Virus genome (UHGV): UHGV-0229283
Source: a virus
DNA length: 64,000 bases
Reading direction: 5' to 3' (one strand)
Under the pieces are notes generated by a model. That model made no database searches. It was not told where the DNA came from and saw only the letters and a list, made by a program, of their open reading frames with translations. Both the position numbers and the translations under genes were made by a program. Shown piece by piece: positions 5,291 to 58,293 of this stretch (position 1 is its first letter; the number at the start of each line of letters is the position of its first letter).

Positions 5291-5497
5291 TTAGTAGCGA
5301 GACCACTTCACGCGACCACCGTCGCAGACCAGTTTGTTCTCAACGACAATGCCATCCGCACTGTTTGCCAAGCGTTGTTCACCGTTAGGCTTACAATTAT
5401 GAGTGACGGTATCTGCTGTGTCAACAACAAAAAGCGCCACTACCACAATTATTCCAACGATTACTAAAGGTTTCACCCAAGGCATAAATCCACGCAT
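5291..5497 (-). CDS. small N-terminally anchored membrane protein (68 aa)
   Basis: Single N-terminal TM (PLVIVGIIVVVALFVV) followed by a short periplasmic tail; lies just upstream of the lipoprotein gene. Confidence 0.4.
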   Translation of the reverse strand: MRGFMPWVKPLVIVGIIVVVALFVVDTADTVTHNCKPNGEQRLANSADGIVVENKLVCDGGRVKWSRY

Positions 5498-8944: not shown

Positions 8945-9039
8945 TTCGTTCTCCTGTTTGTGAAGTTATTTTGAAGCGAGGTCTCTCGTCTTCATGTGAT
9001 ACACTTTAATGCTATTCGAAACGGCTGTCAACACTATTT

Positions 9040-9267
9040 TTAAATTTCTTGCAAATATTCAATCATGGTCTCTAAGCTTTTATTCTTATAGCGTCTAGAA
9101 GCCAATGACCAGCCGGGGTACTCATTGTCGGTATCGGTAGTGTACACCATCCACTCCCCTGCAACTTTCCTGAAAAAGCTGACATAGTACGCCCAATTAC
9201 CGCCCGGAGTAGGATGTCCTGGATACATAAAATAATGGGTTGCTTCTTTAGGTTTGTTCGGAAACAT
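9040..9267 (-). CDS. hypothetical protein (75 aa)
   Basis: Co-oriented ORF downstream of a terminator. Confidence 0.4.
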   Translation of the reverse strand: MFPNKPKEATHYFMYPGHPTPGGNWAYYVSFFRKVAGEWMVYTTDTDNEYPGWSLASRRYKNKSLETMIEYLQEI

Positions 9268-9280
9268 GATTTCTCCTATG

Positions 9281-9305
9281 AAAAAAAAAGGGCCGAAGCC
9301 CCTAT
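9281..9305 (-). terminator. rho-independent terminator after the DNA polymerase 3' exon
   Basis: The minus strand reads AGGGGCTTCGGCCC (UUCG tetraloop hairpin) followed by T9. Confidence 0.55.
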
Positions 9306-9307
9306 CG

Positions 9308-10003
9308 TTAATGGCAATCGCTCCAATTACGACCAGTCAGGTATGCCCCTGTGATATGTACAGGACTGCCCATGATACGAGCGGCCTTCTCTACACATCT
9401 TACGACCATTTCACCTACAGGGCAATACTGGATGTGAATTTTACCATCCTCTCCAAAAATACCCTCGTAGACTGTATTGCCTTCCGCATCCTTGACTTTA
9501 TCACCGTTGTCATCTTTGACGGCCTTTCTCCATTCATGTCCGTCAAATACCCGGCCTTTTGCTTCCCATTCTTTAACGAAAGCTGTTGCCTCTTCCAGGG
9601 TGTCAAACTCCCACTTCTTCAAGTATTTCTTAGGAACCTGGAGCTGGTATTCATCATGGTAGTAAATCAGGCGACGAACGTCATCATCATACCAGCCACG
9701 TTTGATTAGTTCCCAATGAAGAAGGATACCCACCAGATCGAATAGAGATGCACCACCGTTTTGCTGGAAAGCATTCAGAAGAGAGTGCTTAGAACGGGTC
9801 CAAATCTTACGACCATCGAGACCAGGGATATAACGTTTACCCGTTGCTTCCCAGAAGTTTTCAAGCCATTCCTTACGACCTTTCAAACCAAAGTTACTAT
9901 CCCAGAAAGCATCGATTACCGCCTGTGCCTTGTCAAGGGAAATGTGAAGCATTGCTGCAATCTTAGCTGCCTGAGCACCATACATGATCCTAATGTTCGA
10001 CAT
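9308..10003 (-). CDS. DNA polymerase (family A), C-terminal fragment/exon 2, carrying motif C
   Basis: IMYGAQAAKIAAMLHIS matches the Pol I motif B tail (YGMSAFGLARQL). YYHDEYQLQV matches motif C (VHDE). Confidence 0.75.
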   Translation of the reverse strand: MSNIRIMYGAQAAKIAAMLHISLDKAQAVIDAFWDSNFGLKGRKEWLENFWEATGKRYIPGLDGRKIWTRSKHSLLNAFQQNGGASLFDLVGILLHWELIKRGWYDDDVRRLIYYHDEYQLQVPKKYLKKWEFDTLEEATAFVKEWEAKGRVFDGHEWRKAVKDDNGDKVKDAEGNTVYEGIFGEDGKIHIQYCPVGEMVVRCVEKAARIMGSPVHITGAYLTGRNWSDCH

Positions 10004-10121
10004 GGGACGCTACCACCATGCCCGTTCTCTTATGAACTGCTGCATGTTTCCATGCAGAGCAGACTATATCTTCACCCACACTTGGGGTGTCCACCGCTTC
10101 GGGCCGCTTGGCCCTACTCCG

Positions 10122-10523
10122 TTACCGGATAGTCGTTGGGATTTTACCTCTTGCCAAATACCACTCTTCACCACTACAGTAAAGATTGTTGCAAACAGCA
10201 TGTTCTACATTAGATGCACGGCATGATAACTCTATATTTTCCCAGCAATTATTCAATGTGTTTGCATCTAGGTGGTTGACCTCTTCCTCTTCAAGAAGGT
10301 CTCTACCGATCTTTGCCGCACAAATCAACCTGTGCAACAAATAGTGTTTGCCATTTTTCAAACAGATACGCTGATAAAATTTCTTTCCCTTACCTTTGTG
10401 TAGATAGGGCTTCAACTTTCTTAGTTTTCCACGATTGCTGGAGTATATATTACCTTCGTGGTCACAAAAGTATCCGTTTGATATTGGTATTTTAGCCAAG
10501 GTACTTATCTGCTGATTGTCCAT
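10122..10523 (-). CDS. HNH homing endonuclease (HNH_3 type) inside the DNA polymerase gene
   Basis: NGYFCDHEGNIYSS...KLKP......Y..I.L...GK..LHRLI is the I-HmuI-like HNH_3 signature. The ORF lies between the two polymerase fragments. Confidence 0.7.
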   Translation of the reverse strand: MDNQQISTLAKIPISNGYFCDHEGNIYSSNRGKLRKLKPYLHKGKGKKFYQRICLKNGKHYLLHRLICAAKIGRDLLEEEEVNHLDANTLNNCWENIELSCRASNVEHAVCNNLYCSGEEWYLARGKIPTTIR

Positions 10524-10671
10524 TTCATCCTCCTAAAAGGAGAAATCATACATAAATTTTTCAAACTGTCAAGCCCATCCTCGCGGATCACTTTGTAGTA
10601 TTTATGTCTTTAGGATTTCCCAGCAATTCAATGGATGCACCTTATAAATTACTTCATAAGGGGGCTATCAA

Positions 10672-12711
10672 TTAACCGTAGGTTACCCCTTTACCACCGT
10701 TACGCGTTACCAGAGTACCAGAAGCTTTGGTGTATGCCTCGGCGTTTCGTGCGTGGGCATCTCCACTTTCCATGATACGGAGGTATTCACCGCCATCGAA
10801 CTCGTAAGCACCCCAAGCAGCAATCATACCTTCGAGGTTAGAACCATCGATACCGACTTGGTAATATTCATCGGTCACACCCCAGAGACCACGCATCTCT
10901 TTACCCAACAACACCTTAGGATCTGGCTTAGGCATGTTTGCACAAATGGTGTGCTTACAACGCCCGGTGTTAGTGATACCAGAGAAACGAGCTGGAAGTT
11001 TTCCATCAATCGCCAGGCGAGGATGATTCAACAGCCCTGTATCGTTTTTATCCTCGTCAATAGGGTCGAGAACAGAACGACGGTTACGTAATGACAGCCA
11101 CTTAACAATCTGTTTAGCCAAGTGAACATCGATAACTTCAAGGTTAGGACACAGCTTGCCAAAGTTATCCTTCAACTGTGGTGAAGTCGGCAGTTGACGA
11201 GCTTTGCGTCTGAACTTCTTGAAGATCTCCTCGTAAACACGATCAGAACCATGACGATGGTCGAACTTGTTTTCCGAGATATTGAACTTTGCGTCACTAT
11301 TATTTAAGTGCTCAAGAATCAGAGATTTATACTCGGACTCTCCAAGTTCTTCGATGTACTTACGCACCAGACCATCAACCTCCGCATCATCGCGGGTCTT
11401 TTTGAACTGGTCTTTCGTCACATCTTTAACACGCCAGAGCGTTGGTTTCCATCCCGCATCGCGGATCAGGTACTTCTTGATGTCGTCCTGGTTCGAGATC
11501 TTCATCGGAACCATCAGGTCTGGCATCTTTCCAGCACGAAGATCGGCAATTGCCTTTTCCATTAGGTCTGGTGGCAATGGGACAAGGGTATTCTCTTTCT
11601 TTATCTGGCTTCTAATGAAGTCTGGCATCGCTGCCGGGTCTTCAACACCATTCTGGATACAGTATCTTTCCCCTGCTGCACTTACATCACCGTTACCTTT
11701 AAACGCCGTCTTCGGTGGACCTTTGAATTCCAGCGCTTCACGATTAACTGGATATCCCAGCTTGTATTCTAACCAATTCCACCCGTGATGGGAAATTCTT
11801 CCTGCACCATCAAAAGGATTAGCAGGGAATTTTGGCTGTTGAGACTTCGTCATCTCTTTGAGCGGGAGTTGAGGTTCTACTTCTTCCTCAATCTCTTTCA
11901 TCATTACATCAATACGGTCTCTCAGCTTTTCAGCTTCATGCTTATTGAATGGAACACCCTGAATTTCTTGCTCAATCATCAGGTAATCAGTCAACATACG
12001 GCGGCGTAGCGCGTTCTTCCAGTTGATCTGCCGCATCCCTTCCGGCTTATCTTTGTACATGAACTGCTTGTCATCAGGCCAGCGAGCACCTGTAGACTCA
12101 TCGATCAGGGATTGCCATGTCAATTCGTTGATTAAAACGTCTTCCCAGACACGGTTAACGTATTCCCACAATGGTTGGTTACGCCAGTCATCGATCTGAA
12201 CTTTCTTGTTTGCTACGCGGTAGCCCCAGGCCAACAGGCCATGAGGACCTACACGGTCTCGCTTCCCGGTTACCGGGTTAAGAACAGAGTCAGGGCAACC
12301 GTTAGGTAATGGGCGGTCAGGATAAAGCACACGGCTCATAGAGAGGGTGTCGTAGAGATTTACCTGTGTATCCCCAATCGTCCCCATGCACTTCGGGTCT
12401 TTGAACATATCATATTCAATGCCCGATAACTTCTTCCACAGACGCAGGTCATAGCCAAAAAGGTTGTGAATCGCAATGCCGCGAGGCTCCGTTTGCAACC
12501 AAGTGTACAGCTCGTCATAAGAAAGAATCCTAAGGTTAGCCTCTGTCTTGCTACGAGCGTAAGCTACTGCGCTTTCATATTCCGGGTGGTTTGGGTCAAG
12601 GAAGAGGACCCAATTGTTAACACCAAATTCTTTCAGTAGTGTGCAGTGGTACTTTGTAACTTCATCAAGCAGCCCATCTGCTTCATTATCCCCTATAAAA
12701 AGACCTCTCAT
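10672..12711 (-). CDS. DNA polymerase (family A), N-terminal fragment/exon 1 (3'-5' exo plus palm motifs A and B)
   Basis: N-terminal LFIGDNEADGL is exo motif I-like. IDGSNLEGM corresponds to motif A (DYSQIELR). The C-terminus RNGGKGVTYG corresponds to the start of motif B (RRxAKxxNFG). Confidence 0.8.
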   Translation of the reverse strand: MRGLFIGDNEADGLLDEVTKYHCTLLKEFGVNNWVLFLDPNHPEYESAVAYARSKTEANLRILSYDELYTWLQTEPRGIAIHNLFGYDLRLWKKLSGIEYDMFKDPKCMGTIGDTQVNLYDTLSMSRVLYPDRPLPNGCPDSVLNPVTGKRDRVGPHGLLAWGYRVANKKVQIDDWRNQPLWEYVNRVWEDVLINELTWQSLIDESTGARWPDDKQFMYKDKPEGMRQINWKNALRRRMLTDYLMIEQEIQGVPFNKHEAEKLRDRIDVMMKEIEEEVEPQLPLKEMTKSQQPKFPANPFDGAGRISHHGWNWLEYKLGYPVNREALEFKGPPKTAFKGNGDVSAAGERYCIQNGVEDPAAMPDFIRSQIKKENTLVPLPPDLMEKAIADLRAGKMPDLMVPMKISNQDDIKKYLIRDAGWKPTLWRVKDVTKDQFKKTRDDAEVDGLVRKYIEELGESEYKSLILEHLNNSDAKFNISENKFDHRHGSDRVYEEIFKKFRRKARQLPTSPQLKDNFGKLCPNLEVIDVHLAKQIVKWLSLRNRRSVLDPIDEDKNDTGLLNHPRLAIDGKLPARFSGITNTGRCKHTICANMPKPDPKVLLGKEMRGLWGVTDEYYQVGIDGSNLEGMIAAWGAYEFDGGEYLRIMESGDAHARNAEAYTKASGTLVTRNGGKGVTYG

Positions 12712-13217
12712 TCATCCCTCGCAAAAGTGTTATGGTACTTGGCTCTTTCTCTTTTAGCTACATCTGCCGCTTCTTCAAGACTGTCAAAATATCCGCAGTG
12801 GATTTGTTTTCTGTTAACACAGATCTGCACCTGCCATTTACCAGCATGTTCTTTCCAGTAGACACACTTATGGCCGGAGGTGTTAGTGACCCTTTTCCTA
12901 CTATTATGCATGTTTTGGTTTGTTGTTGCGGGTCTCAGGTTTTCTACGTGGTTATTTTGAGGATTGCAGTCTTCGTGATCCACAACATCAGGAAGCCATC
13001 CATGATGGTACAAGAAAATCACCCTGTGAGCGAGAAATCTTCCTAACGGGGTGCTTATCTCAATGTACCCTGTGTTCATCACGCTTCCAGCTTCCTTACC
13101 GCCATACTTGGTATTGAAGGTTTTGTTGAACCTGTTTGTTGCGGGCCTTAATCTGTGGTAAAGTTTACCATCTCTGTATTCAAACAACTTCCTAACGTAC
13201 TCTTGCGAGAGTGTCAT
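12708..13217 (-). CDS. HNH homing endonuclease with AP2 DNA-binding domain
   Basis: HRVIFLYHHGWLPDVVDHEDCNPQNNHVENLRPATTNQN is an HNH_3 motif. HKCVYWKEHAGKWQVQI...YFDSLEEAA is an AP2 domain. The gene is free-standing between the primase-helicase and polymerase genes. Confidence 0.7.
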   Translation of the reverse strand: MTLSQEYVRKLFEYRDGKLYHRLRPATNRFNKTFNTKYGGKEAGSVMNTGYIEISTPLGRFLAHRVIFLYHHGWLPDVVDHEDCNPQNNHVENLRPATTNQNMHNSRKRVTNTSGHKCVYWKEHAGKWQVQICVNRKQIHCGYFDSLEEAADVAKRERAKYHNTFARDE

Positions 13218-13273
13218 TGTTCCTCCTATTCAAGGTGGGCTAGACTGTACCGTCGCCCACCTCTCAGTTGGTA

Positions 13274-15337
13274 TTAAATTACATAAATTGCATGTTTTGC
13301 GTATTGCAATCCTATCGGGGCGAAAGGCGTATCATCGTCAGGACCAAGAGTAGGGACTGGTGTCCTATCAAGATCGATGGTTGGCTTATACTCAGGTGCC
13401 GGAACATTTACCTTTCCAACCGGAGTTTCCAGAGAGAGTTGATGGATCAGACTCTGAGGACGAAGCATAACTTCACCATTAAGCTTGAACATCCCATCTT
13501 CCCATTCCCAGCCGGAAGCATCGGAGAACTGCCCGTTGTCATCCATAACCATTGTATCAGCGATACCCAGTTTTTTGTGTGGGCGGTTCTTCAGCACCAC
13601 GATACGTACACGCCCACGGGAGCGGTCAGGAAGCTCTTCTGGTTCAACACCCAGAACCACCCATGAGAGTTGTTCAAGGGCCGCAGAACCGCGCAGGTCT
13701 TCTTTACGGACCGGATACCAGAACGGCAATAGATTCCCATCTTTATCTTTCGGAAGCTGAAGTTCTTTACGCTTCATGTGGCTGATTGATAAGATGAAAA
13801 CATCGTACTTCTTACAGAAAGCTGCCAGCTCGGTCATGATGTTATCAAGGTCTCGACGTTCGTTGTCGGACTTAAGACCAGAGATTACCATTGACAGGTG
13901 ATCGAGGATGATCCATTTACAACCATCAAGGAACACCATCTGCTTAAGTTTCTGAATAAGCTGGTCTGTCGGGATAGAACCGAAGTGATCAAAGATCTTA
14001 ATCTTATCTTCCCGAATCCAGCGTTGGTGAATCTCAAGGTGTTGCTCTTCGGTTAAGAACTGCTCCGGGTCAGCAACAAATGCCTTAGGGTCCACCTTCA
14101 GCTCTTCAGCATACAAGCTGTTTACAGACTCTTCTTCATCCTCTTCCAGACGGATGATGGCTACTTTCTCACTCTCGGTCCAGCCATCTAGGCGGGGAAT
14201 TGACATATCACGAAGATAATCAATGATCGCGTATTCAATCTTACGAGAGATTGTAGACTTACCACCACCAGACGGGCCTGTCAATGTCCAAAGCTCACCA
14301 GTACGGGGGCCACGGGTCAGGTTATATAGGCCGGGTAGCCCTGGTAATGGAACACCATCTTTTTTCTTCTTGCGAAGATTCTCAATGGTAATATCCTTAA
14401 GACCGATAAGCTTATCAGGAACATAGCGATCGTCTGCTTTGGTAAACATTGCATAAAGCTCGCGTACCTTACCTGCATCATACATGTCACGAATGTCTTT
14501 AAAGCCATCCGGGTCATTACGCTCGTTAGGATATCGCACAACGTAAATATTTTCTGACAGCAGGAAGCTAGCGACATCGTCGGTTGCTTCTTTACCTTTC
14601 TTTATTTTCTTTTCTTTTTCTAATGCTGTGGCTTCGTCGTTATCAAAGCCCAAGACTACCTTCTCATAACTGCGAATGAACTTCTCGTTGTTTGCGAAAG
14701 TATCAACAGCGTTTGCAGTACCACAGTTTAATCCAACATAGGGTAGTGTCGGAAGACCTCCAATGTCCTCGTCGTTCTGAATATGACGGATACCTTTTAA
14801 GATGCTATCCGCCCAGTCTTTAACGCCTTTACTGGCCTTTGGACTGGTGGACATAGCCTTAACCATCTCATACGCTGCCTGCCATGCGGCGCATACGTCA
14901 CCTTCACCTTCCACGATATTGATCTGCTTACGACCAACACCCATAGAGGCTTCATGCTGCCCGAAGAACTGAGATGATGCCTTCACAGCACCAACAGTTG
15001 AAAAGTGTCCTGTCTTTTCCTTCTGTAACGTCCAGTCACGTTTCTTGAATCCCGTCAGTTTCCCATACTTATCATAATAAGGCAAGTATGTTGCTACCGG
15101 GGTGATACCATCCGCCGGGGATACCGCAGAACGGATCTTAAAATACTGTGCTGCTTCAAGAGAGAGACTCATTTCGGGAACAGCCATGATGCGGGTGCCA
15201 GACAGCACTGATTCCAGGGTCTCTTCTACTCGATTGTTACTATAACTCAACTTGCCTCCGCGATTACTTCCAAAACCTGCTCTTGGGTTTTCATTGCCAC
15301 CTTTCCTATAGGCCGCCCAATCTGGTCCATTACCCAT
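13274..15337 (-). CDS. T7 gp4-like bifunctional DNA primase-helicase (TOPRIM plus DnaB-like SF4)
   Basis: 687 aa. Walker A TGPSGGGKSTIS. FILSISHMKR helicase motif. IVEGEGD and FDNDEA are TOPRIM acidic motifs. Confidence 0.85.
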   Translation of the reverse strand: MGNGPDWAAYRKGGNENPRAGFGSNRGGKLSYSNNRVEETLESVLSGTRIMAVPEMSLSLEAAQYFKIRSAVSPADGITPVATYLPYYDKYGKLTGFKKRDWTLQKEKTGHFSTVGAVKASSQFFGQHEASMGVGRKQINIVEGEGDVCAAWQAAYEMVKAMSTSPKASKGVKDWADSILKGIRHIQNDEDIGGLPTLPYVGLNCGTANAVDTFANNEKFIRSYEKVVLGFDNDEATALEKEKKIKKGKEATDDVASFLLSENIYVVRYPNERNDPDGFKDIRDMYDAGKVRELYAMFTKADDRYVPDKLIGLKDITIENLRKKKKDGVPLPGLPGLYNLTRGPRTGELWTLTGPSGGGKSTISRKIEYAIIDYLRDMSIPRLDGWTESEKVAIIRLEEDEEESVNSLYAEELKVDPKAFVADPEQFLTEEQHLEIHQRWIREDKIKIFDHFGSIPTDQLIQKLKQMVFLDGCKWIILDHLSMVISGLKSDNERRDLDNIMTELAAFCKKYDVFILSISHMKRKELQLPKDKDGNLLPFWYPVRKEDLRGSAALEQLSWVVLGVEPEELPDRSRGRVRIVVLKNRPHKKLGIADTMVMDDNGQFSDASGWEWEDGMFKLNGEVMLRPQSLIHQLSLETPVGKVNVPAPEYKPTIDLDRTPVPTLGPDDDTPFAPIGLQYAKHAIYVI

Positions 15338-33047: not shown

Positions 33048-33959
33048 ATGTTTGATGTTAAAAAGAAATTTACCAACAGCGAGATTAAAAGTCTAGAAGA
33101 ACGGTATCATAAAAAGGTAGAACGCACAAAGAAAAGGGGTTTAGAATTCTCCTTGACCCTTGATGACTGGTTCATGATGGGAGAAAAGCTTTTGGGCATT
33201 GGCCCGTGCGACTACACCAATATGAACTTTAGCACGAGGTCGGTACATGGCGAAAAAGACCCATTGTATCCGACAGTTGAGCGCATTGACGATAAGAAAG
33301 GTTATGTTCGTGGAAATGTATGCGTTGTCTTGCAAAGAGCCAATGAATTGAAAGATCGTTTGGTTGACAAGAAAACAGCCATCACTATAATTGATCCGCT
33401 AGACCGTGAGATTGTGCAGGCTATGATGCTGAATATGTCTAAAGACCATCTCGAAAAACTGAAAACTAAATATATCCCACAACAGGAGACAAAAATGGAC
33501 ATGAAAGAACACATGGCAGAAGTAGAAAAGAATCACAACACCGACTACAAAGAGCTTGCTGAACACGAACACAAACAACCGCCTGCGGCAGAAGAAACCA
33601 CTGCACCTGTGGAAGTGGAGGCTGAACCGAAAGAAGCTATCAGTGTTGCACTGCCAGAAGATGTAGCTGTTGCGCTTGCCTATGCAAATTACTGCAATAC
33701 TTTTGCAAATGTCGGTATGAAAGTAAGTGTGACATATGCTCAGTTCAAGGCCAAATATATTCGCAGCACCTGCGCAATGACCGGAGAGAAGCTTACTGGT
33801 GAGCCTAAATCCATTCTGATTCTGGATCTTAACATTGGCTTTGCCAAAGATAATTTCATCATCGTTTCCAAGAAAATGGAAACGGCTATGACTCAACTGA
33901 TGATCCAGACGGGCCTTAGCCTGCCAAAAGTTACAGCAATGCTGAACAAGGTGGTGTAA
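33048..33959 (+). CDS. hypothetical protein (303 aa)
   Basis: First plus-strand gene after the strand switch. GGAG RBS. Confidence 0.55.
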   Translation: MFDVKKKFTNSEIKSLEERYHKKVERTKKRGLEFSLTLDDWFMMGEKLLGIGPCDYTNMNFSTRSVHGEKDPLYPTVERIDDKKGYVRGNVCVVLQRANELKDRLVDKKTAITIIDPLDREIVQAMMLNMSKDHLEKLKTKYIPQQETKMDMKEHMAEVEKNHNTDYKELAEHEHKQPPAAEETTAPVEVEAEPKEAISVALPEDVAVALAYANYCNTFANVGMKVSVTYAQFKAKYIRSTCAMTGEKLTGEPKSILILDLNIGFAKDNFIIVSKKMETAMTQLMIQTGLSLPKVTAMLNKVV

Positions 33960-44269: not shown

Positions 44270-44274
44270 TATTT

Positions 44275-44303
44275 GACACCAGGCCCGGAAAGGGCCTATA
44301 ATT
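44275..44303 (+). promoter_or_regulatory. consensus sigma70 promoter (TTGACA, 17 bp, TATAAT) with hairpin GGCCCGGAAAGGGCC in the spacer
   Basis: Perfect -35 and -10 hexamers at optimal spacing. Confidence 0.6.
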
Positions 44304-58129: not shown

Positions 58130-58293
58130 CGCTTACCCGTCCATAGATGCAAAATTTTTTCATACGCCTCCCCATGATTTCTCCTTTGAAATTGTTTATC
58201 TTGGCATTATGACAGAAAGAGAGGTCTTGTCAACAGTTGATTGATACCAAATTTGTTGGTATAATCATTTAAAAAATATGGAGGGGGGTTGTT

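Follow-up and report, generated by a model that had tools for sequence, protein, structure and literature searches.

Does a phage DNA polymerase gene that is broken inside a catalytic motif give rise to one protein or to two? The question is raised by the UHGV virus genome UHGV-0229283, of which a stretch of 64 kb, here called the window, was analysed as a whole. Three open reading frames (ORFs) on its minus strand make up the locus: a polymerase ORF of 679 amino acids (10672..12711) with the C-terminus ...TRNGGKGVTYG*, an ORF of 133 amino acids for an HNH endonuclease (10122..10523), and a polymerase ORF of 231 amino acids (9308..10003) with the N-terminus MSNIRIMYGAQAAKIAAML and the motif YYHDEYQLQV. 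An earlier note on this DNA had described a polymerase gene split by an HNH-bearing insertion, which the three ORFs and a Pfam HNH_3 match confirmed, and had left the choice between a group I intron and a polymerase made as two polypeptides. The results described below lead us, with high confidence, to a group I intron, mobile and of the phage IA2 type, that carries an HNH endonuclease gene. Judged by its sequence, the source is a Mydovirus-like Klebsiella phage of the Vequintavirinae, the exons being about 98% identical to those of Klebsiella and Proteus Mydovirus phages when the region is compared by megablast with 50,697 phage records.

Exon boundaries and the joined polymerase

The polymerase gene of Proteus phage Mydo is uninterrupted and has 2718 nucleotides (nt), and the exon and intron boundaries were set by gap-free alignment to it. 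Excision of the 686 nt from 10674 to 9989 leaves an ORF of 2718 nt that aligns with the Mydo gene with zero gaps and with 2669 of 2718 nucleotides identical (98.2%); the translations agree at 898 of 906 positions including the stop, or 897/905 residues. Comparison with uninterrupted relatives, which the earlier note had suggested, showed in this way that precise excision restores a frame colinear with that of the intronless homologue. Exon 1 (10675..12711, minus strand) consists of 679 codons and ends ...ACC TAC GGT, the final U being the 5' splice-site nucleotide. Exon 2 (9308..9988, minus strand) consists of 226 codons and the stop, begins ATC ATG TAT GGT, which encodes IMYG, and contains motif C (YYHDEYQ). 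The junction after excision reads ...ACC TAC GGT | ATC ATG TAT GGT..., within the expected ligated-exon sequence ...ACCTACGGT|ATCATGTATGG..., and the intronless Mydo allele reads ..TACGGCATCATG.. at the insertion site.

From the position of this junction it follows that the stop codon of the 679-residue ORF is formed by the first three bases of the intron (UAA), and that MSNIR, the first five codons of the 231-residue ORF, is intron sequence and not polymerase. The coordinates of the earlier description are thereby corrected. The spacer of about 670 bp agrees with the distance between the two polymerase ORFs (10004..10671, 668 bp), but the inserted element itself extends over 9989..10674; the downstream fragment does carry YYHDEYQLQV, but its first five codons do not belong to the polymerase. 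An intein was rejected as an explanation, the insert having in-frame stops from its first codon (UAA) and being an RNA ribozyme. The guanine-plus-cytosine content is 0.38-0.39 across the HNH ORF, as against 0.46-0.50 in the exons.

The joined protein aligns with T7 DNA polymerase without a break over the motif B junction (E 3e-20), TRNGGKGVTYG|IMYGAQAAKI facing TRDNAKTFIYG FLYGAGDEKI of T7 (TRDNAKTFIYGFLYGAGDEKI), and with Taq and Klenow polymerases at E 1e-7 to 1e-5. In Pfam only the joined protein clears the DNA_pol_A cut-off (34.7 bits against 34.3; the C-terminal fragment alone reaches 20.5), the match running unbroken across the junction over residues 646-805. The location of the break within motif B, as described earlier, is upheld by both results, and the presence of motif B (RxxxKxxxYG..YG) and motif C (HDE) within the DNA_pol_A domain identifies a family A DNA polymerase. 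In the usual T7 numbering the insertion site corresponds to G527|F528, after Y526-G527, in the O-helix.

The ribozyme and its relatives

The intron (9989..10674, minus strand, 686 nt, IA2-like) begins with UAAUUGAUAGCC and ends with ...GAACAUUAGG, the terminal G lying at 9989 (intron position 686); window coordinates are obtained as 10675 minus the intron position. The group I covariance search proposed in the earlier note gave a match to Rfam RF00028 at 10040..10683 on the minus strand, with 66 bits against a gathering score of 50 and E 1e-15, covering model positions 1-253 of 253. The catalytic core (P3-P8 and P4-P6 domains, P7) is thus recognized above the curated threshold. This match was the sole one to Rfam in the 64-kb window, whether gathering thresholds or a limit of E 0.01 were applied, so that a second intron was not found in the window, and a tRNA search of it found none. 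Other Rfam matches within 9000-13500 (snoRNAs, DUF805, others) had E values of 0.7-8, far under the thresholds, and were dismissed as chance.

The 5' half of the ribozyme (10468..10674, minus strand), delineated by the Rfam alignment, helix coordinates and fold, comprises P1, P2 (intron 14-20/29-35), P3 (40-46/579-585), P4 (50-55/160-165), a P5 extension with P5a (68-75/118-125) and P5b (87-98, GCGA loop), and P6/P6a (169-207). The 3' half (9989..10134, minus strand), supported by covariation and by blastn similarity to other phage introns, comprises P7 (541-545/609-613), P7.1 (546-557, GUAA loop), P7.2 (561-574), P8 (586-602), P9 (618-635, GAAA loop), P9.1 (638-651) and P9.2 (653-676). In subgroup IA2, P7.1 and P7.2 lie between P7 and P3' and are joined by G-U-A (criterion as quoted in PMC3428280). 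The segment at 546-574 reads UCCG-GUAA-CGGA / GUA / GGGCC-AAGC-GGCCC, and the GUA linker between P7.1 and P7.2, both of which covary, places the intron in that subgroup. RNAfold of intron 49-165 recovers P4, P5a and P5b (z = -2.3). A hand-drawn P5 (60-67/137-144) is not part of the minimum free energy fold, which favours a local hairpin over the Shine-Dalgarno sequence of the HNH ORF, and the exact pairing of P5 is for this reason uncertain.

The splice sites show the expected hallmarks, with U at -1, the terminal G, a P1 of 5 bp with a G.U wobble, a P10 of 4 bp, and GNRA loops. The internal guide sequence, 5'-UGAUAGCC-3', lies at 10663..10670 on the minus strand (intron 5-12). In P1 the exon bases GGU together with intron U1-A2 pair with U8-A9-G10-C11-C12, and in P10 intron U5-G6-A7-U8 can pair with AUCA, the first four bases of exon 2. 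The intron strand of P1 is invariant among five introns at the same site. The codon at -1 is GGT in all six intron-bearing alleles compared, and GGC, with C and not U at -1, in intronless Mydo.

Covariation supports the fold. When the 3' halves of 11 phage introns are aligned, standard pairs form in 98.9% of cells and 12/26 pairs are compensated; none of 500 shuffles reached these values, and slid controls pair at 30-44%. Among the five same-site introns, 99.2% of 263 cells are paired (32-42% in slid controls) and 8/53 pairs are compensated, including pairs in P2 (3), P3 (1), P7.1, P8, P9 and P9.2. Compensatory changes across related introns as a whole occur in P2, P3, P7.1, P7.2, P8, P9 and P9.2, and P4 and P7 never vary, which makes them uninformative in this respect. 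The differing P5 lengths of the two intron types described below kept MAFFT from aligning the P4'/P6 segment (AAUCAGCAG[A/G]UAAG) between them, and P4, P5 and P6 were therefore excluded from the pair counts; the segment was aligned by eye.

The same codon boundary, GVTYG|IMYG, is occupied by an intron in four lineages of the Vequintavirinae: in Mydovirus (K54_rec2, DP, K18PH07C1), Seunavirus (SSE121, GEC_vB_MG), Avunavirus (Av-05) and Certrevirus (CB7). Relatives with at least 95% exon identity include both carriers and non-carriers, Mydo and others lacking the intron at 98%; KNP2 is a further intronless relative. Such presence and absence at one site occur here together with transfer between lineages, seen in the central 493 nt described below, as is characteristic of HNH homing endonucleases. 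Anatomy, exact excisability, covariation and presence/absence polymorphism are direct readings of the sequences.

The closest system with a known outcome is that of CB7, in which the intron bearing the HNH gene CB7_52 belongs to the same subfamily, the same gene and the same insertion point. The two introns have identical first 15 bases (UAAUUGATAGCCCCC) and homologous 3' halves, and in both phages a free-standing HNH gene overlaps the polymerase start. The CB7 intron differs in a short P5, in an HNH ORF of 155 amino acids (149 as annotated) from another family (PHROG 25862 in place of PHROG 959), and in the lack of an internal promoter-like site. Reverse transcription PCR of infected cells and Sanger sequencing of the complementary DNA showed that both HNH-bearing polymerase introns of CB7 are spliced (Buttimer et al. 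2020, PMC7344957). In the same study the HNH gene upstream of the polymerase (CB7_54) was free-standing and not spliced out, and an HNH-bearing insertion in the nicotinamide phosphoribosyl transferase gene did not splice (PMC7344957).

In blastn the 3' half resembles the introns of the T4 nrdD, nrdB and td regions, the polymerase intron of Yersinia phage Berlin, the terminase intron of rV5 and the nrd introns of Staphylococcus phages. The T4 td intron is likewise of subgroup IA2 and lies in a gene of nucleotide and DNA metabolism, and its 3' core is the part that is detectably similar; its endonuclease is of the GIY-YIG and not of the HNH family. The Berlin intron, also in motif B, is 80% identical in its 3' half over 147 nt, but is inserted 10 nt upstream, inside the F codon (AKTF|IYG). 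Related ribozymes therefore occupy neighbouring, distinct O-helix positions in unrelated phage families. The Berlin intron region (record L005, 1990-2645) is annotated within a joined coding sequence (CDS).

Polymerase introns are reportedly present in the phages PhiI and W31. These T7-like phages, Berlin and the cyanophage Pf-WMP3 (I-PfoP3I, PMC3428280) resemble the window in having a family A polymerase as host gene, an IA2 P7.1-GUA-P7.2 arrangement, an HNH ORF running into P7, an intron start of UAA and a P10 of 4 bp. In Pf-WMP3, Berlin and the window, the initial UAA ends translation of the unspliced exon 1. The HNH ORF starts upstream of P4' in the window, whereas in the T7-like and Pf-WMP3 introns it starts in P6a. 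In Escherichia coli numbering, polymerase introns are found at 674 in SPO1, SP82, Bastille and Pf-WMP3, at 676 in phiL7 and at 881 in PhiI and W31 (PMC3428280).

Mosaic composition and the endonuclease gene

The 133-residue protein matches Pfam HNH_3 (E 1.5e-8, 34.6 bits, cut-off 24.8) and PHROG 959, "HNH endonuclease" (E 2e-27). It is 100% identical to the proteins of SSE121 and GEC_vB_MG, and its closest non-identical relative is CB7_50 (55% identity), the endonuclease of the second polymerase intron of CB7. A sequence search of the PDB with this protein returned nothing at E up to 1, and hence no match to the solved I-HmuI. From its start in J5/4 the ORF traverses P4' and P6/P6a, and its end (..TTIR*) lies in P7 and the GUAA loop of P7.1. 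The ending ...TTIR* is common to the HNH ORFs of both intron types, since each of them enters the conserved P7 strand and has its stop in the P7.1 loop.

The same-site introns are of two types. The K54/CB7/Av-05 type has a short P5 and an HNH ORF of 149-161 amino acids (PHROG 25862, scored on the K54_rec2 protein), and the SSE121 type, which includes the window, has a long P5 extension and the 133-residue ORF (PHROG 959). The window intron combines parts of both. Positions 1-60 and 554-686, the two arms, are 100% identical to Klebsiella Mydovirus introns save for a 2-nt insertion in the P8 loop, an identity confirmed in the natural isolates DP and K18PH07C1, and over the central 493 nt, positions 61-553, the identity to SSE121 is 99.8-100%. 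The introns of SSE121 and GEC_vB_MG lie at the same site and are 97.5% identical to that of the window over 686 nt; their arms differ in the P2 loop, P7.2, P8 and P9.2, where the window agrees fully with Klebsiella Mydovirus, and the 3' arm of SSE121 is 91.5% identical when gaps are allowed (an ungapped value of 31/84 is an indel artefact). The exons of SSE121 are just 78-87% identical to those of the window. Among the phage records searched, at least 80% of the window intron is present only in the Seunavirus records SSE121, GEC_vB_MG and GE_vB_MG, and none of the records searched showed the exact combination of exons, arms and centre.

These identities lead us to infer, as the simplest reading of the mosaic, that two alleles which both carried an intron recombined, the crossovers falling in the arms that they share. 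In SPO1 and SP82 the endonucleases I-HmuI and I-HmuII are reported to cut the heterologous intron-containing allele and to replace it. Like the window, these phages have HNH endonucleases in polymerase introns of related phages, but at a different insertion site, and allele replacement of this kind could explain the mosaic. It is tempting to speculate, although we hold this only tentatively, that the chimera arose by competition of introns across genera, in which a centre of the SSE121 type replaced the resident Mydovirus centre, driven by an HNH protein that cuts intron-containing alleles and is expressed from an unspliceable transcript beginning within the intron, near position 137, with its ribosome binding site unmasked. 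The exchanged module would consist of the P5 extension with its promoter-like site, the Shine-Dalgarno sequence, the HNH gene and the embedded P4'/P6 strands; recombination would take place within the conserved arms, and the HNH protein would act as I-HmuI and I-HmuII do.

The promoter-like element is of the sigma-70 type (TTGACA-16-TATGAT, 11/12 matches) and lies at 10545..10572 on the minus strand in the P5 extension, where its function is putative. Its end lies 22 nt before the HNH ATG and just ahead of the Shine-Dalgarno sequence AGGAGG at 10529..10534 on the minus strand (intron 141-146), which is paired in both candidate folds of the precursor. The window holds 11 sites with at least 11/12 matches, where shuffles give 1.5, a 7-fold enrichment, and the phage evidently uses such promoters. 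Other examples lie at 33364-33391 (+), 44273-44302 (+), 5396-5424 (-) and 58206-58233 (-), and their abundance agrees with reports of early promoters of a sigma-70-like kind in Certrevirus phages.

The endonuclease probably has an expression route of its own, through this intron-internal promoter. An internal transcript would begin about 7 nt past the -10 hexamer, near intron position 137 and window position 10538; it would miss P1-P5 and so could not splice, and it would also miss the 5' hairpin arm that pairs the Shine-Dalgarno sequence in the precursor, leaving the ribosome binding site unmasked. For I-TevI of the T4 td intron, an intron promoter of its own and a ribosome binding site paired in the precursor have reportedly been described. 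The window resembles td in its predicted intron-internal promoter and in a ribosome binding site paired in the read-through precursor.

Splicing, rival explanations and gene models

On the reading as a mobile intron, the polymerase gene would be transcribed as a single pre-mRNA within which the ribozyme folds. The first attack would be made by an external guanosine after the last U of exon 1, which P1 pairs with G10 of the guide sequence; the released exon 1 would make the second, after the terminal G, with exon 2 aligned by P10, so that the ligated mRNA would encode one polymerase of 905 amino acids. The presumed role of the HNH protein is homing: polymerase alleles of phages infecting the same cell would be nicked or cut close to the site, and their repair would copy the intron in. 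The activity of the endonuclease and the chemistry of splicing are both inferences, the latter from the structure of the ribozyme and from the spliced homologue of CB7; guanosine-dependent self-splicing has indirect support, by analogy, through this same-site intron, which is spliced in vivo (PMC7344957). Several points weigh against the reading. P1 pairs with just three exon bases, the pairing of P5 is ambiguous, and the HNH ORF overlaps the core helices P4', P6 and P7, so that its translation could disturb folding. The insertion of CB7 that does not splice shows that not every HNH-bearing insertion in the subfamily is active. Moreover, the same-site intron of CB7 that does splice is of the other type, with a different P5 and HNH ORF and about 50% identity centrally; that result does not directly cover the central module of the window intron.

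It might be argued that the polymerase is truly split, the insertion staying in the RNA and the 679-residue and roughly 231-residue polypeptides associating. Both fragments are complete ORFs, the downstream ATG (10003..10001) has a weak GGTGG 9 nt upstream, and the records of relatives in GenBank list the pieces as separate CDS; there is also a likeness to NrdA of Aeromonas phage Aeh1, split by mobE, and to the nicotinamide phosphoribosyl transferase insertion of CB7, and non-splicing insertions have precedents (cited in PMC7344957). This explanation is nevertheless very improbable in view of the complete covarying ribozyme in the spacer, with correct splice-site features, and of a break in the O-helix that separates two neighbouring, conserved YG elements, at a site where the CB7 intron is spliced (PMC7344957). 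Helix P9.2 contains the downstream ATG, in place of which SSE121 and CB7 have CTG, and the annotators of relatives' records chose differing starts for the downstream fragment (TTG or an internal ATG). An independent downstream start kept by relatives, which the earlier note had named as the mark of a split gene, is therefore not found, and its lack of conservation argues against two independently translated polypeptides. Of the two alternatives left in that note, the group I intron is borne out by the RF00028 score, exact excision, splice-site hallmarks, covariation and the spliced CB7 homologue, and the split polymerase is disfavoured.

To an even smaller probability we assign a decayed or inactive intron, in which a recent chimera has a swapped centre (P5, P4', P6, ORF) that fails with the resident arms, the genome being defective or dependent on a helper. 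The mosaic of two intron lineages, in a combination absent from the 50,697 records, would fit such a state. The pairings between modules are, however, intact (P3 40-46/579-585 and P4 50-55/160-165), the arms differ from those of SSE121 at few positions, most of them compensated (P8, P9.2), and the same central module works in the plaque-forming isolates SSE121 and GEC_vB_MG, in which the polymerase must be expressed.

As a mobile IA2 intron with an HNH gene, in a host gene and a subfamily already known for splicing introns, the element is typical of its kind and leaves the understanding of group I introns unchanged; the mosaic origin and the internal promoter are its sole mildly unusual points. 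The mosaic offers a small, clean case of ribozyme arms and an endonuclease-bearing centre with different histories, and the O-helix site, 10 nt from that of Berlin, extends the map of polymerase positions targeted by homing elements. The practical consequence concerns annotation. In dozens of records of related Klebsiella, Salmonella, Escherichia and Pectobacterium phages the gene now appears as two or three "DNA polymerase" fragments. There, as in the window, a single joined CDS of about 905 amino acids with an intron would be the right annotation. Since such phages are being developed for therapy and biocontrol, it is important that their gene models be right and that mobile endonuclease elements be recognized in them.

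A second HNH-bearing polymerase intron, further downstream, occurs in K54_rec2, SSE121, GEC_vB_MG, Av-05 and CB7 and is lacking in the window, so that close relatives hold zero, one or two introns in the polymerase gene. The corresponding regions are 1486-2934 in record L002, 1477-2940 in L004 and 19494-20810 in L007 (9308-9988 in the window). The same-site intron of the K54 type and the second polymerase intron obtain only some 39 bits from RF00028 and so fall short of its gathering score, 50 (L002 2989-3660 and 1882-2614; L003 1864-2596); since their CB7 homologues splice, scans at the gathering threshold would miss such introns.

In the GenBank records of relatives (L002, L003, L004, L006, L014) the exons appear as two or three separate CDS named "DNA polymerase" or "hypothetical protein", none of them joined, and those of SSE121 and GEC_vB_MG are likewise annotated as separate CDS only. 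In OY978784 (K18PH07C1) the feature table is out of register, with pseudogene-flagged CDS named "DNA ligase", "Sir2" and "ATPase" lying over the polymerase and intron; the annotation seems to be offset, and it was set aside, with only the DNA of this record being used.

Upstream of the polymerase, a free-standing gene for an endonuclease of 169 amino acids with HNH_3 and AP2 domains occupies 12708-13217 on the minus strand of the window, its stop codon overlapping the polymerase start codon (ATGA). Some relatives also have a further HNH gene that overlaps the 3' end of the polymerase and is lacking in the window. The upstream HNH_3 and AP2 gene is kept in Mydo, K54_rec2 and CB7, where it is CB7_54.

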